Source of the DNA: a virus
Virus record (IMG/VR): IMGVR_UViG_3300021090_000723
Coordinates: 32,001-96,000 of that record
Length of the DNA: 64,000 nt
Reading direction: 5' to 3' (one strand)
Shown here: in pieces, positions 19,301-43,510 of the stretch
How positions within the stretch are numbered: the first letter of the stretch is position 1
Layout of the letters: each line of letters starts with the position of its first letter
Translations under genes and position numbers: made by a program
The notes under the pieces: generated by a model
The model's input: only the letters and a program-made list of their open reading frames with translations
Told to the model about the DNA's origin: nothing
The model's database searches: none

Positions 19301-22300
19301 TGCCGGTGTCGATCTTGGTGGTCCCGACCTTCGCGTCCCACTTCTTGGCGTACCGGTTCAGGAACTGGGGCACGATCCTGTCGTAGAAGCCCTTCATGCC
19401 CTCGCCGCCGACGGTCAGGTCGAGGCCGGAGATTTCACGCACGCGCACACCAAGTCCGGCTGACCGCCCCTCTACTGGTGTTACAGCCAACAGCTTATCG
19501 GCAAGCTCCGCTCCGACCAGTTCCGCCAAGTCATCGCGCGACTCGATCTGACGATTGATGGCCTCCTCATTGCGCTTCCCGTAGGCAATGAGGTGCCCAC
19601 GTTCGAATGGCCCGTCCATCCGCGGGCGCCCAATCCCGCCGCTGACGTTGTCTGTCAGCCGGAGGCTGTTGACGTGCTTGGCAAGATTGTACCGCTCAGC
19701 CTGCTGCGCACCGGTCGTCCAGGCGAGGCGGTCGTAGCCGTTCTCGGCGGCGTAGCGCAGCATCCGCTTGAGGGCGATCTCGTGCCAGGTCGACTTGAAC
19801 GGCGCGTCCGGGACGCCGGTGCGCTTCTCGATCGCCTCGCCTTCCTTGATCGTCCAATTCGTCGTGTCCATCGGCGCTTGATCGTCACGATTCCACGCCG
19901 GCCGCCGCCCATGCTTATCGCGGATGAATTCCTGCGCCTGGTCCAGCGTCGGTCGAGTGCCTACCAGTTCGCCTTGATCGTCGAAGATTGAAAAGACCGG
20001 CGAACGGGTTTCCTTGACGCTATAGCCCTGGCGTCTGCCCTTCTGATGCCAATCGCTCTGGATCTCCTCGATGAAGAGCACCCTCTTGCCGTCGGCGTCT
20101 GCGCGATCCTTGAAGCGCACATGGGCCAGGATATTCGCCTCATCGAAGTGACCTGAGCGGAACTGGCCGCTGAGCGCATCGATCGCGAGGCTCCTGTCGC
20201 CGGGATACCGGCGCCGCATGACATCGATCCAATGCGCGTCGTTTGGGCCCTCGTATTTTTTCGTGACGCTATTGAGCACGATCGGGTCATCCCAGGTCCC
20301 AACCTTATGGTCGCCGTAGAAGACCGTGACGTCGCCCTGGGTGGTCGACCGACGATTGCGCTCGATGCGGACCTTGGCCGGGTCGAAGGGCACGCCGATC
20401 TGCGGCAGCGTCAGCAGCAGTTCGCGGTAGTTCTCGCCGCCAGGGAGGGTTTGGGACTCAAACTTGGTGGCGCCGCCCTCGGCGACGATCCCGGCATCAC
20501 GATGGATCGCTTCACGCGCTTCGATGAAGTCCCCGAAGTCGCCCAACTCTCGACCAGCCCGGATGGCATTTACGCGAGTAACCACTCCGCGCTGGTCGTA
20601 ATGGAACGTGACGCTAGCATCGTCAGCGTCAAAGGCCATTTCCGAATAATACCGTTGACCCTCAGGTTGGATGGTCCTTTCTTCATCGGGGAGCCAATCC
20701 TCGATATTCTCCGGATAGGGTCCCTCATCGTCGCCAGGCGCGCGGCCCTTCTCGACCTCCTCGATCTGGACGTTGTTCTCGCGGATGAAGTCGAGCAGCG
20801 CCTGCTTCGTGACCGGTCCCTGCTGGGACTCGAGCCATTCGTTCACGCCGGTCCACTCGGTCTCGTCCTTCGTGATGCCGCGCGCGTTCTTGATGAAGGC
20901 CTGCCACTGGATGCCCGACGCCTTCTCCTGCTTGGAGGCCTCGATCGTGCGCGCGAGCGTCGAGAAGAACGGCGCCGGCGGCTGTGGCTTCAGGGCGAAC
21001 TTCGCCTCGGACCTGGTGGGCCCGGCCTTGCCGCGCTTGCCGATCCTGCCGGACTCGATGCGCTTGAAGATGTCCTCTGGCGTCTGGAAGCCGCGGCCGC
21101 GGAAGAAGTTGCGCAGGCCCTCGAAGAAATTGCGCACGCGCTGGAGAACCTTTGTCGCCAGGCCTGCCTTCGCGAATTCGTTGCTAGGCTCATAGTTCTG
21201 CGCCGCGAACGCGATCGTTTCCTCGGTCTGGACGTCGGGCTTGTAGTATTTGCCGACGATATCGAACGTCCGTTTCCACTTGTCTTTTGCGGCCGCTTCG
21301 AGTGTGGCCCACTCTGACTTGGTGAAGAAGCCGAGATTGCGCAGGCCGTGGATGACCTCATGCGTGATGGTGCCGAACGGGTCCTTGGTATCGAGCGCAA
21401 TGGTGATGAGGTTTTTTGTGATGTCGAAGTGGCCGTCGGCCTCGTGGCCCTCAGGGTCCGCAATCGCATCGGCCACGCGCACGGCGAGCGGAAGGTTGCG
21501 ATTGACCAGATAGGCGCGGAGATCGGCGGCCAGCTGCTCGCGCTTCGCCTCGAACTCGGGGCTGAATGTGAAGGTGACGCCGTCGCCGGTCTCGATGACC
21601 GGTGGCGCCTGCGGGAGCCTTAGTCTTTCAAGGCCTCTTCCAACGCCTTCTGGGCGCGCGCCCTCGCCTGCTCCACCTCTGGGCTCGACGGCAAGTCCTT
21701 GGTCCTCGCCAAGAATCTCCGCAATGCCATCGGCGAACTGAGTGGGGGCGGTTCCTCGATCAGATACATTGACGACTCCAATCGCTTTCAGCGGCGAGGC
21801 GATGGCCTCGGCCCCGGCTTGCGCCATCGTATCGAACGTGGCCGCAAGGCTTTCCGGAACAACAACGGATGAACGGTAATCGATGAGGCCGGCGCGCGCT
21901 AGACCCACCGCGAAGTTATGGCTGAAGTTGGCGACGGCGAGGTTGCGATCGAGGCCCCGCTCGCGGATCAGCGAACGGCCGACGCGGCCCTGGGCGTTCT
22001 GCGATTCTTGCAGCATCTTGTTCAGGATGTCGGAGGGGCTGGACCACAGCGTCAGGTCCAGATCGGCGAAGGCCCGGCGCGTCTCGGGGGTGAGACGGGC
22101 GGCGTGCCACTGCCCCTCCGTGGTGTGGGCGATCATCCAGTCCAAGCCAGGGAGATCCAGCAACGTCAGGTCTGCGAAGGACAGGCCGTATGGCATCGTG
22201 TGGTTATGGTGGAACACGATCCGCGCATCTGGCTTGCTGAGCGCATCCTCGATCTTGCCCCGGAGGTTCACATATGTGTCCTTGCCGGAGGTCTCCGCCG

Positions 22301-25300
22301 CGATGACCGTCTGGGTGGCCGGGTCGTAGGCCACGGCCGCTTCGGTCTTGGTGCGCTCACCGAAGGCGCGGAGCCAGTCGCCGATCGCCACGTTCACGGC
22401 TGCTGGCGTCTTGGCCTTCTTCTTCGCGACGAATTTCCCGAGGTCGTCGGCCAGGTCCGAATTGCCCTCCACGATCCGGCGCGCGAGCATGCCCTCGTCC
22501 CTCGGCGGCCGGGCGGGCGGCGCCAAGCCCAGGCCTTCGCCAGGCGCCTCGCTCAGGATGAAGCCGGCGGAGCGGCGCGGCGGGAGGTCCGGCTCGGGCG
22601 CCCCGGCCACGGGCTGGGGATCGGCCTCGATGAGGCCAAGCGCCTGGTCGATCTTGCGCTGACGCTTCAGCGCCGCCTGGTATTGGTCCTCGCGCTCGAA
22701 CGGGACCTTGACCAGTTCCTTGAAGTCCACGAGCTTCTTCTTCGCCGTGTCGATCTTGGCCTGGCGATAGTCGATCTCGCCTGGGCGGCTCTTGAAGAAG
22801 TTCTCGATGCGGCTGATGGCGCCCAACTTGAGCGACTGGAGATCGAGCTCCACCTTGTCGGTCATCTTGCCGTGGATCACGGCCTGCGGCTGGTAGTAGC
22901 CGTCGACCTCAACCGAGATCGGGAAGCCGTACATCTTGCCGATCGGGATGTCCTCGATCTCGGCGTTGCGCTTCCGGCCCTGGGCCTCGTTCTTGGACTT
23001 CTGGAGGTTCCAGGCCTTCTCGATGATGTCGGCCAGCGCCTTGGACGCATCGACGCGCTTCTCATAGACCGTGCCCAGGATGGTGTAGTGCGGCTTGTCC
23101 TTGCGTTCGAGGTAGGCGGCGTGGTCGGCTTTGACCCGCCCGCGCGCCTCTTCCATCCCGGCGATCTCGCCCGGCAGGCGGTGGATCTGCCACTCCATTT
23201 CGTGGATGTTGTCGTAGTGCGCACCGCGCAGGCGCGAGAGACGATCGACGTCCGAGTCCGCCTTCGCCTTGTCCAGGATCAGCGGGTTGCCCGCGGCGAG
23301 GGCCTTGGCCTCGGCGAACGACAGCACCTGCTCATCGATGTCTTCGGCCTCGCGGACCGAGGGATCGCCGCGCTTGATCTGGTTGATGAAGCGGGCCTTG
23401 CGCTCGACGGTCTGCCACATATAGGCGTCGAACGATCCTTCGGTGACGTAGCGGAAGAGGTCGATCTCTTCGTTCGTGTTGCCCTGACGCTCGATGCGGC
23501 CCTCGCGCTGCTCGATGTCCGATGGGCGCCACGAGGGGTCGACGTGGTGGAGCGCCTTCAGGCGGTCCTGCACGTTCGTGCCGATGCCCATCTTCTCGGT
23601 CGAGCCCAGCAGGATGCGCTTGCGGCCGGCGCGCACGTCGGCGAAGAGGTTCGCCTTCTTCTGATCGGTGTTGGCGTCCTGGACGAACGCGACATCGTTC
23701 GCGTTCACGCCCTTCTTGACCAGTTCCTCCTTGATGTCGCGATAGATGCTGTAGGCCACGTTCGACGGGACCGACATATCGCAGAAGATGATCTGGGTGT
23801 GCTTTTCCTTGGCGCCCGCCTTGTAGATGCGCGCCGCGTTGCTCGCGACCTCGGAGGCCTTCCGGACCTTTTCCTTCCTCGCGGCCGGGTCCACCACACG
23901 CAGATCGAGCGATGCCTTGCGGCCGTCGGTCGAGATCAGCAGCATGTTGTCTTCGTCGGGCGTCACCTCGCGCTTGCGGACCGCCTCGGCGCGCTCGCCG
24001 ATCTCCGCGATGTAGGCCTTGAGCGCATCGCTCGCGGGCACGATGATGGTCTTGGGCCCGCCGCCGCTGATCTTCGGGAGCTTCACCTGGCCGGTCGCGA
24101 TCAGGTCGTCCTTGCTCACCAGGTCCGAGAACTGCCGGTACATCGAGATCAGTTCGGGGATGTTGCGGAAGCGCGCGAAGCGGGTCTTCAGCATCGCCTT
24201 TCCGCCCTCGGGCGTGATCTCGGCTTGCGTGACGGTGTCGCCGAAGGTCGAGGCCCAGGCGTCGAAGTGCGAGAGGCCGCGCTCGGCCAGCCCGCGCGGC
24301 TGGAGATAGCGCTGCATCGTGTACATTTCGGCCATCGAGTTCGAGATCGGCGTGCCGGTCATGAACATGAGGCCGCGGCCCGGCGTCATCTTGTCGATGT
24401 ACTTGGTCTTCAAATAGAGATCGAACGCCCGCTGGCTCGACGGCGGGTTCATGTTCGTGATCTTCGTCGCGAATTCCAGGTTCTTGAACAGGTGGGCTTC
24501 ATCGACAAAGATGCCGTCGACCCCCATTTCCTCGAACGACAGGCCCCGGTCCTTGTCCTTGGCCTGCATCAGTTCGCGGAGCTTTTCCTCACGGCGCTTC
24601 TTCGCGGCTTCCAGCTGCTTGACCGTCGGGCTGCGGCCCCCGGTGTCGGTCTCGCGCGCGGCACGGATCAGGTCCGCATATTCGGCGATCTCGTCGCGGA
24701 TATAGTCAGCCTGGAACTTGGCCGACATGCCGACGCGCTCGAAACTGGAGTGCGTCATGATGATCGCGTCCCAGTTTCCGGCCGCCGCACGGGCGACGAA
24801 GCGACGGCGATTGTCGCCAGCGAAGGCGCGCTCGTCCGCCACCAGGATGCTGGCGTTCGGGTACAGCTGCATGAACTCGCGGCTGAACTGCTCCAGCATG
24901 TGGTTCGGGACGGAGAACAGCGGCTTGCTCAGCAGGCCTATGCGCTTGGCCTCCATGGCGGCCGCGATGGCCGTGAACGTCTTGCCGGCGCCCACCAGGT
25001 GGTCGAGCAGCGTGTTGCCCGAGACCAGGTAGCGCCAGACGGCCTTCTTCTGGGTGGAGCGCAGTTCGATCGTGCTGCTGGAGCCAGGAAGCGTCAGGTG
25101 ATCGCCGTTGAAGGTGGCGACCCGGAGGTTGTTGAAGTTGTCGTTGTAGAAGCGGGACAGCCGCGCACCGCGCTCTGGGTCCTTCCAGATCCACTTGGAG
25201 AAGCGCTCCTTGATGTCGTTCTGCTTTTCCTGCGCCACGATGGTGGCGTTCATGTCCGTGTGGGTCTTGCCCTCGGAGTCCTGCCAGGAAATGACGGTCG

Positions 25301-28300
25301 ACTTCTGGTTAAGCGCATCGCGGATGAGGTCGATGCCGCGGCGCGCGATCGACTTGCCCTCGGCGCGCGAGGTCGTCCAGTTGACCGACCAGGTCTGGGT
25401 GTTGGGCGCGGTGCCCTCCTGGGCAATGCGCACGTGCCAGGTCGCTTCCTTCGGCACGTATTCAACGATGGCCTCGGTCTCGAGCAGTTCGGAAATGAAC
25501 CCCTCGACGTCCGAGTTGGGAATCCACGGCGTGCCCATGCGCACCGCGATCTGAGACGGCTTCAGATCGACTGGCTGGACGACTTCGAGCGCCTTGACGT
25601 TCTCGGCCCACTCGGGCTCGCCCTTGGCAGCGTCACGCGCGAAGGCCAACTTTCCGCGCACGTTGCCCGAGAGATAGACCTCGGACGGCTCGTAGGCGCC
25701 GGTCGCCGGGTTCTTGAAGATGCGGCCCTTGAGTTCGTTGAGGAACGTGCTCGGCTGACGGCCCAGGATTTTTGCCATGTAGGGCACGTCGACTATGCCC
25801 TTCATGTTCATGGACGCGATCAGCGCCTCGTCCGGCGTGTTCACGCGGAGGATTTCGCGCGTCGGCTCGACCACGCGATCGGTGAAGATCGGGCCTTTGA
25901 TGCCCTCGTTCTTCTCTTCATCGAAGCGCTCGAGCGCGGAGACCAGCGCCGCGTCCGGATCGTCACGGAACGCCAGCATGTTCGGGTAGCGGCGGTATTC
26001 GCGCACCTCACCGTCCGGCATCGTGCGCCGGCTGATCTGAACCTGGTTGATGTAGCCGAACGCCTTGACGAACTGGGCGTAGAGTTTCCCCAGTTCCTTC
26101 TGCGGCGCGACCCACGGGGCCGTGCCCTTGCCTTCCCACTCGCCGCGCTGCGCGGTCAAGATCTCGCGGGCCTTGTCGCGGAGCCTGATGAGCAGGCGCA
26201 CGCGCCCGGCCTGGCCGTCGGAGAGTTCGACCGGCACGGAGGATTGCAGCACGCGCTGGAACAGCTTGCCGTCACGTTCGAAGAAGGCGTTGTCCTTCAC
26301 CGTGTCGGGCGGCGGCGCCAGGTCATCGTATGTGTCCACGTCCCCGGCCTCGGGATCGAAGCGGAGCGCGGACTTCTCCATCATGGCCTGGACGGCATTG
26401 GCGATCTTCTCGCGCAGGCCCGTTGCCGTTCCGGTAACGGTGTATTCGTCCTCGCGGTACATGCCGCGCGTGACGGCGTTCGTCCCCAGGATCATGTTGG
26501 GGTTGTCTTTGAAATACTGATTGACCGTCGCCGGGCTCGTGCCGACGCGGAACTCCTTGGCCTCCAGCCAATCCGGCTTCCCGGCAGGCTCGCCCTCCTT
26601 CCGCTTACGGATGAACAGGATGTCCGTGACGACTTGGGTCCCGGCGTTCTCCTTGAAGGCGGTGTTGGGGAGACGGATGGCGCCGATCAGGTCGCCGCCG
26701 GCGTCCCGGATCATGGTGCGCGCGGTCTTGTCCTGCGAGTCCATCGTGTAGCGGCTGGTCACGAGCGCAAGCACGCCGCCAGGTTTGACCAGCTTCAGGC
26801 TCTTGAAGATGAAGTAGTTGTGCAGGCTGAGCGGGCGGCCCTTATTGTACATCTTGTCGGCCGGGCGAATGTCGCCGAACGGCACGTTGCCGATGACAAG
26901 GTCCACGCTGTCTTCCGGAAGCGCGGTGTCCTCGAAGCCCTGCACGAAGATGCGCGCCTCGGGGTAGAGCGCTCGCGCGATCTTGCCGGTGACGTCGTCA
27001 AGCTCCACGCCGATGAACTTCGGATCGCTGCCCTTCGGGCGCATGCCCATGAAGTTGCCGATGCCCATGCCGGGTTCGAGCACGTTGCCCGAGCCGGTGA
27101 AGCCGAGTTCGGTCACGCCGTCCCAGATGCCGCGAACCACATCCTGGCTGGTGTAGTGCGCGTTGATGGTGGTCGCGCGAGCCGACGCGAACTGCTCCGG
27201 CGTCAGCATGGCCTTCAGCTGCTCGCGGTAGGGGATCAGGCCGTAGTCGAGCCCGCGGCCCTCATCGAAGATCTTGGCGAGGCCCGTGGCGCCCCAGCCC
27301 ACGTAATGGGCAAGCTGCTCCTGGTCCTCACGGCTGGCGAGTTGCCCGCCCTTCTCCAGGTCGAGAGCGACCCGGATGGCTTCGATGTTCTTGACGATGC
27401 GCTGGGCTGGACTGCCGGTGGCATAATCGGCGTCTTCAGCGATGCGGAAGTTTAGTCCTCGTATCCCCCGCTTGGCCCGATCCCCGAGGCTTCCCTCTCG
27501 CTCATCGGGAGATACTCCCTCAGGGCGTCCGACTCCGCCATCAGGAGGGCGCTCCGCTCCAGCTTGATCCGTCTCTCCAGAGGCTCGTCCTGGCTCACTT
27601 GCGGAAGTTGGCTGTTGACCCAGTTCGCTATCGATTCCGATAGGTCCTGGACCCTCTGCTCCAGCTTCCCCTCCGCCTTCAGGCCCGCGAACTCCTGTGG
27701 TCGGTGCACCCGCAGGTGCCCTTCCACCTTGCTCCGGTAGCTTTCCGGGCTGACCTTTTGCACGTTTTTCCCTTTCGAGCTCGGCCCAGCGCTTCGGAAT
27801 ATCGATCTTTTTGAGCGCTTCTTCAACTGCCTGCTTGGAGTCGGGCAGCGGCGTGTAGGTCTTTTCCTTGAGCGATCCGTCCTCGTTCCACTCCAGCTGG
27901 TCGAGCAGGCCGCGCCACATCAGGGCGAAATTGGCGCGCTCTTCCTCGGCGGGATAGGGCGTGCCGCGATAGCCGGCTTCCTTGGTCGTCTGGCCTTCCG
28001 CCACCCAGCCATTGACCAGGTAGGGCGAGGTCTGCCCCTTGGCGGCCAGTTCATCGTAGATGAAGGACTCGAACGAGCGCGCCCACAGTTCCTCGGGCCG
28101 CACCCAGTATTTGCCAAGCTCTTGGGCGTTGCGCTTGAACTTGGTCGTGAGCTTCGCGCTCCACCCCTCGTTCTGCCAAAGGTGGTCCACGTACTGCTCG
28201 GCGGTCTTGAGCGGGCCCAGGCCTTGCCTGCCCCGGATGTGCGACCGGCCGGTGAGCAGATTGTCGACCATCTTGATCGCACCCTCCACGTCCCAGGTGT

Positions 28301-31300: not shown

Positions 31301-33665
31301 CCTTGGCCTCTTTATCGAGCCGGTCCTTGGCCTTGGCGTTCTTCGGCGGCTTGCCGGTGGCGGGATCGTTGCCCGAGTCGATGTAGGCCTGCGCCGCGCG
31401 CAGCTGGTTGATGGGCTCTTCGAAGTGCCGCAACGCCTCATCGTGGAAGGCGCGCAGCGTTTCGGTGCGCTCTTCCGGCGTCTCGGCCGGGTTCTCGTCC
31501 CAGAAGCCGGGGCGTCCGGCTTCGCGCAGCGCTTCATCCGCAGGCTCGGGGAACGTCTTCTTGAAGTCGAAGGGCAGTCGTTTGCCGCTCGACTTCTTGC
31601 CCTTTTCCTTGGCGAGATCGGCGGCCTCGCGCTCGATCTGGGCCATTTCCGCCTCGACGTCCTGGGCGGGCTTGGTGCCCGGCACGGTGAACGTCTCCTT
31701 GGGCGGCGTCTCCCTGATCCATTCCTCACTAGGCTCACCTGGCGGCTGGGTGAGATCGGCGCGCTTGACGTCGCCGGTCTTCACGTTGTGCCAGCCGATC
31801 TGGTTGTCCTCTTCGTCGAAGAGCGCTTGCCAGTCCTTGCCACGGGGCTTGGGCGGCATTTCTGCCTTCGGCGGCTGGGTTGGTGGCTTGGGCGGTGGCT
31901 CTGGAGCCTGTTCGGCCGCACCCGCTGGCGGCTCTCCTGGCGCGCCTGGGCGCTCCATCGTGGGCTCGACGCGCGGCTTTTCCGGCTCGCCCTCGCCCCG
32001 GACGAACGGGTGCGTGGCCGCCGCGATCGTGCCGCCCATCACGCCGCCGGTGAGGCCCGCGGCGATCACTGCGCGGGTGGCTTCACCGAACGTCATCTTC
32101 TCGTTCAGGATGCCCATGGAATAGCCGGTCTGGAGCACCTGGGTGAACATTTCCTGGATGCCTTCGGCGCCTGCCGCCTTGAGCGTGCGCGGCAGGAACT
32201 TCCCGCCCTCCTTGATGATGATCCCGAGCGGGATTTTCTCGCCGGCTGTTTCGGCGAAGGCCATGAACGCGCCGTCGAGCGCGGCCTGGGTGGGCGAGCG
32301 GCCGTTCTTGGCGGACTCGCTGTACTGCTCCAGGCCGACCTGGCTTCCCATCATGGCGAGGCCGATGGCCGGGCTTCTGGTCAGGATGGACGCGCCGACG
32401 GTCGCCAGCATGGGCACGCCGGACTCGATGGCGTTGAAGTAGACACCCTTGATGCTGAGTGGATCGAGGTCTTTCGGGGCGCTCTCCTCGAGATCCTTGA
32501 GCGCGGCGAAGGCGATCTTGCCGCCGATGGTGCTGCCAGCGTCCTTGACCGCCTTCTCGCGCGCGGCGAGCATGCCCTGGTACGCCTCTTCGACCTGTGG
32601 CGGCAGCTTGCCGGTGAACGGATTGACCTGTTCGATCGGATAAGGGACCGGGGCCTGGTCCATGGCGAGAATCGCGCCGCCGATCATGTTCTTCAGGTGC
32701 AGCGGCACGCGCTCGGCGGCCGCCATGGTCAGTTCACCGAAGCTGGGCCCGGGGTCCTTCTTGCCGATGCCCGCGATGAACGCGCGCGCCGCGCCGGCGC
32801 CGACGCCTTCCACGTCGGGTTGCTCGATGGGCTTGAACGGCTTCTGTTTGGCCGCGAACGCCTCGGCGGCCGCGGGCGTCTCGAACTTGCCCATGTGCTG
32901 GCCGGTCTGCTTGTAGCGCTCGATGATCGCTTCGTCTGACTCGCCCTCGGTCAGCTGCGGGAGCACGGTCTCCTTGAAGATGCCGTTCTCCGTGAACTCG
33001 AACGAGCGCGTGCCCGCAAAGTCGCCCTTGTAGTTGCCCGGTTCGAGCAGGCCCGGCTCCTGGCGCACGAAGTCCGGCTTGTCAGCGACCGCCTGCGGCG
33101 CAGCGGTGATCGGCTCTTCGGAAACGATCGCATACGGATCATCGCCGCCGGGCGGCGCAGCGGAGATCGCCGTCGGGTCGATCGGCTCTTCGGAAACGAT
33201 GGCATACGGGTCGTCCTGCGGCCCCTGAGACATTTGGACCACGCGCTGGACGTAGTCGTTCGTCTCCGGGAACGGGATCTGGGCGATGAACTCGGCTTCG
33301 CTGATCTCGCCCTTGCGCGGATCGCCCAGGCGGTTGAGCCAGCCTTCGAGCGCGCCCGGGCCAGCGTTGTAGGCCGCACCCGCGAGCGCCGGGCTTCCAT
33401 AGCGCTCAAGCATGGCGGCCGCATAGTCGACGCCTACGCGGTCAAGCTCTTCCGGAGTGTCGTTCGCCGCCGGGCGGACGCCAAAGCCCGGGTCCTTCGC
33501 GGTGCCCGGCATAACCTGCATTTCGGAGCGCGCGCCCTTGGGAGAGACCGCGTTGATCGGGCTCGCTTCCGCGCGCCGGATGATGCTGGGGAAATCGACA
33601 GGCGTGGGCGCGAGCCCTCCGCCGTCCATCGGTTCTTCCGAGACGACGTCCCATTCGTTGACCAT
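16365..33665 (-). CDS. Giant polyvalent virion/ejection protein (5766 aa): SLT transglycosylase, PPase-like, LPD1-like, N6-adenine MTase + SNF2 helicase (DarB-like), JAB-like, zincin, LPD38-like
   Basis: AVSPKGA..EMQVMP/AAYNAGPG/ET.DYV (SLT); ADYGYI...GAD..D.Y.GP...DEHK (PPase); FGFRGVEFGNW..HEWGHALD; VLEPGMGIGNF and GNVPFG (MTase); VGAGKT, DEAH, TGTPISN, QREGRIERQGN (SF2); HHNH.....S.AD (JAB); HEVIH; IEEIQSDWHQ; NFNRRG..LYLFYNASIQG. Confidence 0.9.
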   Translation of the reverse strand: MVNEWDVVSEEPMDGGGLAPTPVDFPSIIRRAEASPINAVSPKGARSEMQVMPGTAKDPGFGVRPAANDTPEELDRVGVDYAAAMLERYGSPALAGAAYNAGPGALEGWLNRLGDPRKGEISEAEFIAQIPFPETNDYVQRVVQMSQGPQDDPYAIVSEEPIDPTAISAAPPGGDDPYAIVSEEPITAAPQAVADKPDFVRQEPGLLEPGNYKGDFAGTRSFEFTENGIFKETVLPQLTEGESDEAIIERYKQTGQHMGKFETPAAAEAFAAKQKPFKPIEQPDVEGVGAGAARAFIAGIGKKDPGPSFGELTMAAAERVPLHLKNMIGGAILAMDQAPVPYPIEQVNPFTGKLPPQVEEAYQGMLAAREKAVKDAGSTIGGKIAFAALKDLEESAPKDLDPLSIKGVYFNAIESGVPMLATVGASILTRSPAIGLAMMGSQVGLEQYSESAKNGRSPTQAALDGAFMAFAETAGEKIPLGIIIKEGGKFLPRTLKAAGAEGIQEMFTQVLQTGYSMGILNEKMTFGEATRAVIAAGLTGGVMGGTIAAATHPFVRGEGEPEKPRVEPTMERPGAPGEPPAGAAEQAPEPPPKPPTQPPKAEMPPKPRGKDWQALFDEEDNQIGWHNVKTGDVKRADLTQPPGEPSEEWIRETPPKETFTVPGTKPAQDVEAEMAQIEREAADLAKEKGKKSSGKRLPFDFKKTFPEPADEALREAGRPGFWDENPAETPEERTETLRAFHDEALRHFEEPINQLRAAQAYIDSGNDPATGKPPKNAKAKDRLDKEAKEAFTAAPEEFVNWWGAYADSFGVEAADVFQEHILRNYDTKTGLMRAALETRIADERADEARRMAQREGEGPVEPLPGLITPPARELAPGEKSGEDVMEPTTDEIVQMEADRAEEEAQEERFTPEPGWDKSIYAARAAAKGLRLEWYGKKFPDLVKDIGDYLVEREQPEAPEHPMAQDLDDYRQREFHLSAYQHNMAETQKRMDEALAGPKKPSKINLDTWKSQIERYKVDIAKAKAEQSDLEYKWPTIAKEAKSQRAAEDAEHDARRAREKVARDEHEAVMERGEVVLDTGKLLPAKAKKSSSNLAFMIVYDPQEARYTVPRISYNITSQAGGMGGSHANEFATLDEAKAYVTSYVERAMSGSWPDSAKRDALGLIASAKEQLAKIKHVARAPEGTKTNPVKRPETEEDIQPARDAVAKETTEAQREAGNYAKGHIENWNGLDITIETPKGTDRLGPEGEDGKPIWTNVNILADYGYIKRSIGADAKPNAPPNQQEKLDIYLGPNLKSDKVFVIDQYDPKTGKFDEHKAIAAVDTPEQAIAVYDAGYSDGSGPQRRKNGGLEMNVADFKRWIEEGDTTTAILPQAVDVSRETIEAPEKRPVKEPRKPVTDRRAPMPKMTDVGEAMAGKRAQAKAKVEKIEDLDKMLEQALDARDLRSRLAADATTGAHVFADFVSRSFVTFTEQEGKNQGGGRGKWRTPFRKTLEKRWEEKRETILENAAEYIGAMEILGDALAGAKNVEDIHAALKRLIVKEVQRPEGMSARVIATDWAQKTLRPYLHHYSWPNLWRLDEGLPHFRDDNTMPTRATPLVRPSIRIEDITRPGLPERRKAGKNVKAEDFRKTFGFRGVEFGNWVTGREGQAHVNAAYDALMDFAEIMGVPAKAISIGGKLGLAFGSRGSGFGSAHYEPDTNVINLTKTKGDGSLSHEWGHALDFNLRAGGVRVPAIDKEIEALVKRNREGTINSMELSDKVKPLQAEKKALLAAGQSARALLASVNGTLSHTWDVEGAIKMVDNLLTGRSHIRGRQGLGPLKTAEQYVDHLWQNEGWSAKLTTKFKRNAQELGKYWVRPEELWARSFESFIYDELAAKGQTSPYLVNGWVAEGQTTKEAGYRGTPYPAEEERANFALMWRGLLDQLEWNEDGSLKEKTYTPLPDSKQAVEEALKKIDIPKRWAELEREKRAKGQPGKLPEQGGRAPAGAPTTGVRGPEGGGEAGAEGPGPIGIDSELGQQPTSASEPGRASGETDQAGAERPPDGGVGRPEGVSPDEREGSLGDRAKRGIRGLNFRIAEDADYATGSPAQRIVKNIEAIRVALDLEKGGQLASREDQEQLAHYVGWGATGLAKIFDEGRGLDYGLIPYREQLKAMLTPEQFASARATTINAHYTSQDVVRGIWDGVTELGFTGSGNVLEPGMGIGNFMGMRPKGSDPKFIGVELDDVTGKIARALYPEARIFVQGFEDTALPEDSVDLVIGNVPFGDIRPADKMYNKGRPLSLHNYFIFKSLKLVKPGGVLALVTSRYTMDSQDKTARTMIRDAGGDLIGAIRLPNTAFKENAGTQVVTDILFIRKRKEGEPAGKPDWLEAKEFRVGTSPATVNQYFKDNPNMILGTNAVTRGMYREDEYTVTGTATGLREKIANAVQAMMEKSALRFDPEAGDVDTYDDLAPPPDTVKDNAFFERDGKLFQRVLQSSVPVELSDGQAGRVRLLIRLRDKAREILTAQRGEWEGKGTAPWVAPQKELGKLYAQFVKAFGYINQVQISRRTMPDGEVREYRRYPNMLAFRDDPDAALVSALERFDEEKNEGIKGPIFTDRVVEPTREILRVNTPDEALIASMNMKGIVDVPYMAKILGRQPSTFLNELKGRIFKNPATGAYEPSEVYLSGNVRGKLAFARDAAKGEPEWAENVKALEVVQPVDLKPSQIAVRMGTPWIPNSDVEGFISELLETEAIVEYVPKEATWHVRIAQEGTAPNTQTWSVNWTTSRAEGKSIARRGIDLIRDALNQKSTVISWQDSEGKTHTDMNATIVAQEKQNDIKERFSKWIWKDPERGARLSRFYNDNFNNLRVATFNGDHLTLPGSSSTIELRSTQKKAVWRYLVSGNTLLDHLVGAGKTFTAIAAAMEAKRIGLLSKPLFSVPNHMLEQFSREFMQLYPNASILVADERAFAGDNRRRFVARAAAGNWDAIIMTHSSFERVGMSAKFQADYIRDEIAEYADLIRAARETDTGGRSPTVKQLEAAKKRREEKLRELMQAKDKDRGLSFEEMGVDGIFVDEAHLFKNLEFATKITNMNPPSSQRAFDLYLKTKYIDKMTPGRGLMFMTGTPISNSMAEMYTMQRYLQPRGLAERGLSHFDAWASTFGDTVTQAEITPEGGKAMLKTRFARFRNIPELISMYRQFSDLVSKDDLIATGQVKLPKISGGGPKTIIVPASDALKAYIAEIGERAEAVRKREVTPDEDNMLLISTDGRKASLDLRVVDPAARKEKVRKASEVASNAARIYKAGAKEKHTQIIFCDMSVPSNVAYSIYRDIKEELVKKGVNANDVAFVQDANTDQKKANLFADVRAGRKRILLGSTEKMGIGTNVQDRLKALHHVDPSWRPSDIEQREGRIERQGNTNEEIDLFRYVTEGSFDAYMWQTVERKARFINQIKRGDPSVREAEDIDEQVLSFAEAKALAAGNPLILDKAKADSDVDRLSRLRGAHYDNIHEMEWQIHRLPGEIAGMEEARGRVKADHAAYLERKDKPHYTILGTVYEKRVDASKALADIIEKAWNLQKSKNEAQGRKRNAEIEDIPIGKMYGFPISVEVDGYYQPQAVIHGKMTDKVELDLQSLKLGAISRIENFFKSRPGEIDYRQAKIDTAKKKLVDFKELVKVPFEREDQYQAALKRQRKIDQALGLIEADPQPVAGAPEPDLPPRRSAGFILSEAPGEGLGLAPPARPPRDEGMLARRIVEGNSDLADDLGKFVAKKKAKTPAAVNVAIGDWLRAFGERTKTEAAVAYDPATQTVIAAETSGKDTYVNLRGKIEDALSKPDARIVFHHNHTMPYGLSFADLTLLDLPGLDWMIAHTTEGQWHAARLTPETRRAFADLDLTLWSSPSDILNKMLQESQNAQGRVGRSLIRERGLDRNLAVANFSHNFAVGLARAGLIDYRSSVVVPESLAATFDTMAQAGAEAIASPLKAIGVVNVSDRGTAPTQFADGIAEILGEDQGLAVEPRGGAGEGARPEGVGRGLERLRLPQAPPVIETGDGVTFTFSPEFEAKREQLAADLRAYLVNRNLPLAVRVADAIADPEGHEADGHFDITKNLITIALDTKDPFGTITHEVIHGLRNLGFFTKSEWATLEAAAKDKWKRTFDIVGKYYKPDVQTEETIAFAAQNYEPSNEFAKAGLATKVLQRVRNFFEGLRNFFRGRGFQTPEDIFKRIESGRIGKRGKAGPTRSEAKFALKPQPPAPFFSTLARTIEASKQEKASGIQWQAFIKNARGITKDETEWTGVNEWLESQQGPVTKQALLDFIRENNVQIEEVEKGRAPGDDEGPYPENIEDWLPDEERTIQPEGQRYYSEMAFDADDASVTFHYDQRGVVTRVNAIRAGRELGDFGDFIEAREAIHRDAGIVAEGGATKFESQTLPGGENYRELLLTLPQIGVPFDPAKVRIERNRRSTTQGDVTVFYGDHKVGTWDDPIVLNSVTKKYEGPNDAHWIDVMRRRYPGDRSLAIDALSGQFRSGHFDEANILAHVRFKDRADADGKRVLFIEEIQSDWHQKGRRQGYSVKETRSPVFSIFDDQGELVGTRPTLDQAQEFIRDKHGRRPAWNRDDQAPMDTTNWTIKEGEAIEKRTGVPDAPFKSTWHEIALKRMLRYAAENGYDRLAWTTGAQQAERYNLAKHVNSLRLTDNVSGGIGRPRMDGPFERGHLIAYGKRNEEAINRQIESRDDLAELVGAELADKLLAVTPVEGRSAGLGVRVREISGLDLTVGGEGMKGFYDRIVPQFLNRYAKKWDAKVGTTKIDTGKESEPSWTVAETHPQKKQGVIDVHSLDVTPAMRESVMEGQGLFARRMPPGANAFTMFTDSPQPSVVDYLRNSNLSLMERLKGAASLSAINASFDKWRVGFQDRYLKVARMQAAIEQMLGRPLTEEENAYLAEELSSGRKGAKLEDLFERQIRPLVLAMHERGISREELETFLYARHAPERNARINEINPKFREEGIAGSGMSDEDARGIMDEVDKTGRRADFDALAGMVDDVLAFALNTRVEAGLMSEEQAEAWRATYRDYVPLRGVAELDPEVEADRPRPGKGFDVKGKESHRAFGRQSPARDILAYAFMQAEEAIIRGENNRIGNAIYELAKAAPNENFWKVDKVAMRPVWIKARQEVQYWPVRRILAEDAPYTLSTKIDGQEHRITFNRNNPVARDLAQGLKGLGQDQISLLIRNFGAINRILSHVNTTLNPEFVITNAFRDAQTALSNIQAHGDIKGITKGTVKDYRKALVASSRSAFKAEPGKTLMPWMAKDQAEWDRWAQEFRENGGRVYFNQMEDVLELRKRLDGQMREIGTSKLNPIMAMKTLGRIIENTNIGVENAIRLSAYKNARERGFTPAKAASLAKNLTVNFNRRGSWGPLMNSLYLFYNASIQGTATLLTAWKSPRVRKVAAFAVLTGFLLDFLNAFVSDEDDDGQLLYDKVTPFDKSRNLIVMTPSEGGVAAKIPLPYGYNIFYGVGRSIAEVMRGKDPLESAGNLAITIMDSFNPVGGAQNLLNMIAPTTMDPVVDLFMNKDYAGRPIAPEQSQYGPQVPNSQRYWNSVSPAYKAVTDFLSTASGGTGVEPGLIEISPEWLDYGFGVAWGAAGTFYERNFLDLPMKFADPTSTITFNDIPFVRRVVTSKPPWIDKATFYERINKIEQSRAYARDYQREGRRPEARGFVQENRAMLSLYNDANNARTELSEIRASRAQAKMALEQGRMARPRYNEQVRILNEAEERIIRMFNAEYLERTRRRP
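21620..21769 (-). CDS. Nested overprinted small gene (49 aa) in +1 frame of the giant ORF
   Basis: GGAG-7 nt-ATG; MYLIEEPPPLSSPMALRRFLARTKDLPSSPEVEQARARAQKALEEALKD; GC3 bias shifts to this frame. Confidence 0.6.
   Translation of the reverse strand: MYLIEEPPPLSSPMALRRFLARTKDLPSSPEVEQARARAQKALEEALKD
27452..27763 (-). CDS. Nested overprinted gene (103 aa) in +1 frame of the giant ORF; TnpV-like helical protein
   Basis: AAGGGA RBS before GTG; Y.....HL..HRP.....L...GKL pattern; nested frame is GC3-rich while the host frame is a Gly/Pro/Glu linker. Confidence 0.75.
   Translation of the reverse strand: MQKVSPESYRSKVEGHLRVHRPQEFAGLKAEGKLEQRVQDLSESIANWVNSQLPQVSQDEPLERRIKLERSALLMAESDALREYLPMSEREASGIGPSGGYED
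29526..29541. promoter_or_regulatory. parS: Perfect chromosomal-type parS site
   Basis: TGTTTCACGTGAAACA, 16/16 match to the bacterial parS consensus palindrome; encodes VSRET in the giant ORF. Confidence 0.85.
33109..33215. repeat. Direct repeat (about 35 nt, 72-nt period) encoding DDPYAIVSEEPI twice
   Basis: ATCGGCTCTTCGGAAACGAT at 33109 and 33181; a third degenerate copy (WDVVSEEP) at the N-terminus. Confidence 0.8.
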
Positions 33666-43270: not shown

Positions 43271-43510
43271 TCATAGTCCGAGCTTACGCAAACCCTCGTT
43301 CACCTGGTGGGCCCAGGCCTGCCAGGTCGCGAAGCCCGTCGGGTCTGGGATACCCAGGCCGGAGAGCGCCGGGACCGTCAACAGGCTGCGCCCAAAGGCC
43401 TCCCAGTCCTCTTCGCGGGGCTCCACCGGCACGTTGCCGATCGCGGCAATGTCGAAGGCCGTGTAAGTGCCCCATTCCTCGAACGTCAGGCCTCGTGGAT
43501 CGTAGGGCAT
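43271..43510 (-). CDS. Small tail-associated protein
   Basis: DPRG.TF.EW...W...P.P..F..WQ.WA motif. Confidence 0.7.
   Translation of the reverse strand: MPYDPRGLTFEEWGTYTAFDIAAIGNVPVEPREEDWEAFGRSLLTVPALSGLGIPDPTGFATWQAWAHQVNEGLRKLGL

Follow-up and report, generated by a model that had tools for sequence, protein, structure and literature searches.

A stretch of 64,000 nucleotides (nt) of viral DNA (the window, positions 32,001 to 96,000 of the 104.9-kb IMG/VR virus record IMGVR_UViG_3300021090_000723) carries a giant gene for a polyvalent, DarB-like protein of 5766 amino acids (aa). Inside this gene, in the +1 frame of the same strand and directly after a JAB-like domain, lies a short open reading frame (ORF) that is probably a real small gene, a divergent member of a family of nested genes found behind the JAB domain of DarB-like polyvalent proteins. 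As far as sequence comparison can tell, the relatives of the giant gene show that such an overprinted small gene exists, that it is under purifying selection and that it is passed on together with the JAB domain. The composition of the window and the comparative evidence lie far beyond chance. The host protein belongs to the phage 'polyvalent' proteins as defined by Iyer et al. (2017; PMC5512222). Pfam recognizes in it SLT, InPase, LPD1, an Eco57I-type N6-adenine methylase, a ResIII/SNF2 helicase and LPD38, and the JAB-like and an HExxH domain were found in addition. The coordinates of all features are collected in Table 1.

A preliminary description of the window, made from its letters, had proposed a +1-frame ORF of 49 aa, opened by GGAG and an ATG 7 nt further on and lying under host codons of atypical usage. 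The coordinates, frame, start and stop of this ORF were borne out, as were the GGAG and the ATG; only the spacer had to be corrected, to 6 nt. This motif, which resembles a Shine-Dalgarno (SD) sequence, is a feature of the nested ORF that none of the other ATG-initiated ORFs of the gene's +1 frame shares, among 17 with a length of at least 40 codons. The nearest +1 stop upstream is found 7 codons before the nested ATG. The predicted product has an LI[DE]EPxPL motif near its N-terminus and its C-terminal half is predicted to be helical. The length of the ORF carries no weight by itself, because the gene's +1 frame contains 14 ATG-initiated ORFs of at least 49 codons and 43 stop-free stretches of that length.

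The claim on codon usage proved correct and stronger than stated. The host gene has a G+C content of 65%, distributed over the first, second and third codon positions (GC1, GC2 and GC3) as 0.64, 0.44 and 0.86, and inside the nested ORF the host frame gives 0.80, 0.56 and 0.46. The same bases read in the +1 frame give 0.56, 0.46 and 0.80, near the norm of the gene. The trough in host GC3 is confined to the nested ORF, the 25 codons preceding its ATG being at 0.80 and the 25 that follow its stop at 0.92. When the whole gene was scanned with a 50-codon sliding window, the minima of host GC3 fell at aa 1978–2081 and at aa 3966–4015, the latter being exactly the nested ORF, and the other linkers of the host gene remained at 0.68 or above. 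A codon-usage log-odds comparison over 5717 windows gave the same picture, the +1 frame beating the host frame in two stretches only, the nested ORF and the first linker of the gene. Recent foreign origin of the low-GC3 stretch was excluded, because the rest of the cassette, that is the JAB module, is at 0.79–0.88. We also rejected a compensated frameshift, since a blastx comparison of the gene with 150 homologues returned no significant match of the +1 frame to their host frames. The third-lowest host GC3 of the gene (0.52) was observed at 20550–20699 on the minus strand, where 52-codon +1 ORFs occupy 20570–20728 and 20411–20569; in this dip the codon-usage comparison did not favor the +1 frame over the host frame, and family searches gave no matches.

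A homologous JAB module was found at about 28% identity in Agrobacterium phage Atu_ph08, in a gene annotated as 'DarB-like antirestriction'. Six related viral records of IMG/VR and a genome contig of A. tumefaciens, presumably prophages, also have it, as do 16 further related records and the viral contigs L042 and L122 (IMGVR_UViG_3300047539_000030), the last being located by a search with P0158, a free-standing homologue of the nested peptide. Right after the JAB module, host GC3 drops to 0.48 in Atu_ph08, 0.45 in L042 and 0.40 in L122, which is the lowest or nearly the lowest value of each gene. The single coding sequence annotated in the Atu_ph08 locus contains two +1 ORFs (Table 1).

The clade of Atu_ph08-like sequences, with seven members sharing 86–99% nucleotide identity (1–14% differences), made it possible to look at the variation of each frame. 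Directly after the JAB module, an island of 288 nt has 0.10 variable sites per nt vs 0.25–0.30 in its flanks. Host third positions are variable at 8 of its 96 codons, against an expected fraction of about 0.66 (about 33 of 50 codons in normal parts; binomial p 3e-32), and host-frame synonymous variation is reduced about 8-fold. The +1 frame is the sole one of the six that is open throughout the island in all seven sequences, with a conserved stop and a nearly invariant peptide, and outside the island it is full of stops and changes. All the antisense frames and the +2 frame are closed in the island, which excludes genes in those frames.

The more diverged loci leave no ambiguity about this pattern. 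In most of them the identity between +1 translations is higher than that between host-frame translations of the same bases (59 vs 40%, 57 vs 36% and 45 vs 28%, for example), and a codon alignment of 11 family members gave 63% identity in the +1 frame vs 44% in the host frame. The mean pairwise differences in this alignment are 0.29, 0.24 and 0.44 at positions 1, 2 and 3 of the +1 codons, and thus the host third position is the least variable. Every one of the 19 sequences collected, including the window, possesses an ATG with a purine-rich SD-like motif 6–11 nt upstream; the stop codons in this set are TAA in 17 cases and TGA in one, and TAG in the L122 copy, which was found later. Several lineages, again including the window, have a +1 stop 5–7 codons before the ATG, suggesting independent initiation rather than frameshifting. 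In these alignments, the overlap with the host gene in the relatives has both properties expected of dual coding, namely suppressed synonymous variation and the periodicity of a second frame.

The preliminary description had expected the ORF to be conserved alongside the JAB domain, and this is what was found. Among 48 related records, the peptide is carried by all 16 with the JAB module (E-values of 1e-29 to 1e-34), records that are kin so that their count overstates independence, and by none of the 32 without it, the single other match being weak and containing a stop. The two also occur together in L042/L122 and in the window, which are separate lineages. The domain that follows the JAB module and the nested gene is a different one in the window. 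Among its relatives the giant protein is closest to P0003 (6014 aa), which retains the downstream HExxH domain at 67% identity. Between the same flanks, P0003 has an ADP-ribosyltransferase (ART-PolyVal-type) module (aa 4053–4258) in place of the JAB module and of the linker with the nested gene (21593–22460 of the window, minus strand). By this replacement, JAB module and nested ORF act together as a single cassette that can be exchanged.

The members of the family have 50–70 residues and share a short, extended N-terminal motif of acidic and proline residues, with the consensus LIDxPSPFDTLxxW. A structure model of the family consists of an unstructured N-terminal stretch that includes this motif, followed by a two-helix hairpin (predicted local distance difference test score, pLDDT, of about 85), in line with the helical product that had been anticipated. 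A hidden Markov model (HMM) of the family built without L042 retrieves the +1 ORF of L042 at E 6.8e-7. With a profile of the nested peptide, in-frame homologues were identified in ordinary proteins of 130–326 aa (P0158–P0163, from JGI/ENA metagenomes; E 9e-18 to 1e-7), which contain one or two copies of the domain, mostly at the C-terminus, and in which no Pfam or NCBIfam family covers it. The one public gene call found for a peptide of the Atu type, P0157, lies on a 624-nt contig of a compost metagenome. The in-frame homologues, this gene call and the hairpin model indicate that the nested ORF family encodes a protein. Searches of Pfam, PHROGs and NCBIfam with several of the nested peptides, none of these libraries being run on all of them, returned nothing above noise, and the ESM Atlas gave no usable match.

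The ORF of the window stands at the homologous place and aligns collinearly with the family (alignment A7). It shares with it the L-I-[DE]-E-P-x-P-L stretch, a central L-P and an invariant Ala, its L-I-E-E-P-P-P-L being aligned gap-free to the family motif LI[DE]xPxP[FWL]. When the L042 peptide was compared by phmmer with the 1424 six-frame segments of the window, the nested ORF came out on top (E 0.0023, the next segment having 1.3). The peptides of L110 and L122 also rank it first of the 1424, not significantly, and so does a profile of the free-standing homologues and L042 (E 0.13). Smith-Waterman comparison of the window with L042 gave a z-score of 5.5 for the +1 frames vs 1.4 for the host frames, and the identities are 28% and 14%, respectively; the likeness is thus not a shadow of host-frame conservation.

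Several observations weigh against a functional gene in the window. Its copy is without the Trp and the T-L of DTLxxW (S-S-P-M-A-L is found there) and without the LKQAR stretch, and retains from the second helix only the invariant Ala. It is shorter than the other members, beginning one residue before the conserved motif; the HMM of the Atu-type family misses it (E of about 2), and direct comparison with the Atu peptide detected no similarity. Because no close relative of the window's phage with the cassette was found in the searches made, selection on the window's own copy is deduced from its composition only.

These observations would be expected if the family were real and the copy in the window a decaying, non-functional relic, with its ORF and low host GC3 as leftovers, a possibility that we consider unlikely. 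The loss of near-invariant residues, the miss by the family HMM and a length of only 49 aa all speak for it. However, the ATG, the SD motif and the TAA are intact, and the identity to L042 in the +1 frame remains double that in the host frame. Moreover, the edges of the GC3 trough coincide with the ORF to the codon, whereas elsewhere in the cassette GC3 is already at the level of the genome (0.79–0.92); a segment released from selection should have drifted likewise. As so sharply bounded a trough in an equilibrated cassette would be hard to explain if the ORF were dead, we read the window's ORF as probably a divergent but live member of the family. That it arose by chance in a GC-rich gene is hardly credible and is contradicted by the comparison with relatives. 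Stops in the +1 frame are scarce in hydrophilic linkers, whose G/A/E/P/R codons also raise +1 GC3, so that the abundance of equally long +1 ORFs and stop-free stretches in this gene fits such an origin, and the linker amino acids do account for the high host GC1. Chance nevertheless leaves unexplained the host GC3 of 0.46 and its exact match to the start and stop, as well as the homologous ORFs with ATG and SD motif in every relative, the excess of +1 over host identity and the in-frame homologues.

A constraint on the nucleic acid itself, such as a pause at rare codons between the domains, a structured RNA or a regulatory site inside the gene, could be invoked from the position of the ORF at a domain boundary and from the Atu clade, in which nucleotide conservation is high at all three positions. 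We consider it very improbable, since folding of the nested region is no better than that of shuffled sequences (z -0.26), no promoter-like site was seen when looked for there, the other linkers of the gene stay at a host GC3 of 0.68 or more, and the diverged members of the family follow the periodicity of the +1 codons and have homologues among in-frame proteins. Little probability is likewise left to a programmed frameshift, by which the +1 peptide would form an alternative C-terminus of a giant protein truncated after the JAB domain. The C-terminal location of the domain in the larger free-standing homologues would agree with it, but the +1 stops shortly before the conserved ATG stand against it, and what the sequences have in common is not a slippery motif but the SD-like motif and the ATG.

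Table 1. Features of the giant gene in the window and nested ORFs of relatives (positions without prefix refer to the window).
Feature	Position	Strand	Remarks
Candidate nested +1-frame gene, 49 codons + TAA	21620-21769	-	ATG 21769-21767, TAA 21622-21620; starts one codon past JAB module
SD-like GGAG	21776-21779	-	before nested ATG
JAB/JAMM (RadC-like) module, aa 3756-3965 (210 residues)	21771-22400	-	motif HHNH x6 S xx D at aa 3818
Host-frame linker, aa 3966-4015, G/A/E/P/R-rich	21620-21770	-	putative passenger reading of nested-ORF DNA; host GC3 0.46 vs gene 0.86
HExxH zincin-like domain, aa 4025-4265	20871-21593	-	marks 3' edge of JAB-plus-nested-gene cassette; 67% identity in P0003
First nested +1 ORF, between LPD1 and methylase	27452-27826	-	host GC3 0.34-0.50, lowest in gene
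Host gene, polyvalent (DarB-like) protein, 5766 aa	16365-33665	-	from ORF list, translation and Pfam
L122, 61-codon +1 ORF of the family	L122:5157-5339	+	after JAB module in giant ORF, at GC3 minimum 0.40
Atu_ph08 (L004 = NC_070876.1 14466-29099), unannotated +1 ORF	L004:5084-5389		at host GC3 minimum
Atu_ph08 (L004), unannotated +1 ORF (predicted 69-aa peptide; ATG at NC_070876.1 position 26137)	L004:11672-11878		at host GC3 minimum

The JAB-like nature of the module upstream of the nested ORF, recognized from its HHNH and S/D residues in the preliminary description, is supported by alignments and modeling. In alignments with relatives (A5/A6) the residues E, H, N, H, S and D are invariant. 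The catalytic residues are arranged as HxH x6 S xx D; the canonical JAB/JAMM motif, E ... HxH x7 S xx D, has one residue more. The module was modeled by AlphaFold with a pLDDT of 84 and a predicted template modeling (pTM) score of 0.82, and a Foldseek search of the PDB with this model gave JAMM/MPN-family structures as nearly all of the best matches (AMSH, JAMM1 and an Rpn11 homologue), the leading ones having a probability of 0.9–0.99 but an E of only 6e-3 and a template modeling (TM) score of about 0.3. RadC itself appeared at rank 25, with a probability of 0.51. Pfam gave no match to the window's module at E up to 10, and the module of the L045 homologue scored 16.1 bits with Prok-JAB and 15.2 bits with RadC, below the cut-offs of 25 and 22.1. 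Together, the invariant motif residues, the JAMM/MPN matches and the sub-threshold scores of L045 support a JAB-like module with a predicted JAMM/MPN fold. In polyvalent proteins, JAB domains have been assigned to the RadC type, with a proposed action on nucleic acids instead of ubiquitin-like tails (Iyer et al. 2017; PMC5512222). The setting of bacterial ubiquitin-like (Ubl) defence systems (CBASS Cap2/Cap3, Bil) raised in the preliminary description finds no support here; no Ubl, E1 or E2 partner was seen, though no search aimed at one was made. In domain type and in class of host protein the window matches the description by Iyer et al., whose text, unlike the case reported here, makes no mention of 'overlapping', 'frameshift' or 'linker'.

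From these data we propose that, on the mRNA of the giant gene, ribosomes would start independently at the internal SD-like motif and ATG and translate the small gene. The G/A/E/P/R-rich linker of the giant protein would be the passenger reading, tolerating the needs of the small gene, which would explain its rare host codons. The small protein could then bind the JAB domain, or act with it, as an inhibitor, chaperone or adaptor in the producing cell. Such a dedicated-partner role is suggested by the inheritance of both as one cassette. From this co-inheritance the product may be a regulator or an immunity factor for the JAB domain, as the preliminary description had supposed, and the idea of immunity is made attractive by the likeness to toxin-immunity cassettes. 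Against a partner role, the free-standing homologues P0158–P0163 have no recognizable JAB domain in the same protein, and the domain of the nested peptide may therefore bind something else. A more general model, which we offer tentatively and think rather doubtful, is that polyvalent proteins of phages and plasmids are built of exchangeable cassettes, each with an enzyme domain and its cognate overprinted small gene. In this model the product of the post-JAB gene would place its LIDxPSPF in the active-site groove of the JAB domain and silence it in the producing cell, up to the packaging and injection of the giant protein, which would leave the product behind.

The expectation that nested genes would recur in the linkers of polyvalent proteins agrees with the presence of another one in the first linker of the same host gene, conserved in about 25 loci. 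In every one of these loci the +1 frame exceeds the host frame in conservation (83 vs 66% and 74 vs 42% are examples); an ATG is present in all members, and a GGAG/AGGA-type motif lies upstream in most of those shown. The first-linker ORF of the window matches Pfam TnpV at E 0.013 and ranks first with an HMM of about 19 homologous +1 ORFs (E 0.0015). Like the post-JAB gene, this TnpV-like ORF occupies the +1 frame of a linker in a polyvalent host and combines an SD motif and an ATG with low host GC3; unlike it, it belongs to another protein family and sits in another linker beside another domain. No paper describing either nested gene, TnpV-like or post-JAB, was found in a literature search.

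Same-strand embedded genes are well known from phages, for example Rz1 inside Rz in lambda (+1 frame) and E inside D in phiX174, and overlapping viral genes in general have reportedly been reviewed. Like them, the nested ORF appears to be a self-contained small gene, with a start of its own, that is read from the same strand as its host in a different frame, and neither reading is interrupted. It differs in that its host is a multi-enzyme gene of 17 kb and that it lies in a disordered linker between domains; this linker is the less conserved of the two readings, and both move together with a single enzyme domain as a cassette. Polymorphic toxins are organized as toxin-immunity cassettes. The JAB module and its nested gene resemble them in that an effector domain and a small adjacent gene seem to be exchanged together, as the ART-type swap in P0003 suggests; the small gene is here overprinted on the host frame rather than placed downstream, and the parallel with immunity is one of analogy.

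Annotation treats a giant polyvalent gene as one ORF, so that the genes embedded in it are missed by gene callers. If each embedded gene serves the adjoining enzyme domain, these genes would give a handle on how phages control their injected effectors. The post-JAB family would also offer a clean natural case of a linker in a large protein that is the by-product of another gene, and would account for two features that could mislead annotators, namely islands of rare codons in GC-rich phage genes and motifs in disordered linkers that look conserved. Such motifs are probably shadows cast by the other reading frame. Since Atu_ph08 is a sequenced phage whose recorded host is A. tumefaciens C58, the prediction should be testable at the bench.

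Further scans had little to add to the set of relatives. A plasmid scan and viral-contig scans with P0009 or with the peptide alignment added nothing, and a metagenome-contig scan found again only the contig of L045 (as L047). None of the 33 methylase-helicase loci examined contains a JAB module, and L002, from the first locus scan, was discarded as a false match to a virus of the circular Rep-encoding single-stranded DNA (CRESS) type. The tails that follow the JAB modules of P0132, P0024 and P0009 (Logan-derived) and of P0066 (JGI-derived), which like the Logan-derived JAB-bearing proteins P0029 and P0141 are known from protein sequence only, display a host-frame [AS]-D-R ... A-M-A 'motif'. 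By comparison with L042/L122 it suggests a shadow of the nested L-I-D and Trp codons, in which case the nested gene would be present there too. Finally, a stop-to-stop frame at 43274–43510 of the window (minus strand) matches the nested-peptide profile weakly (E 0.012–0.06), over a stretch resembling G-L-x-I-P-D-P-x-x-F-x-T-W; this could be a chance match or a distant free-standing relative.

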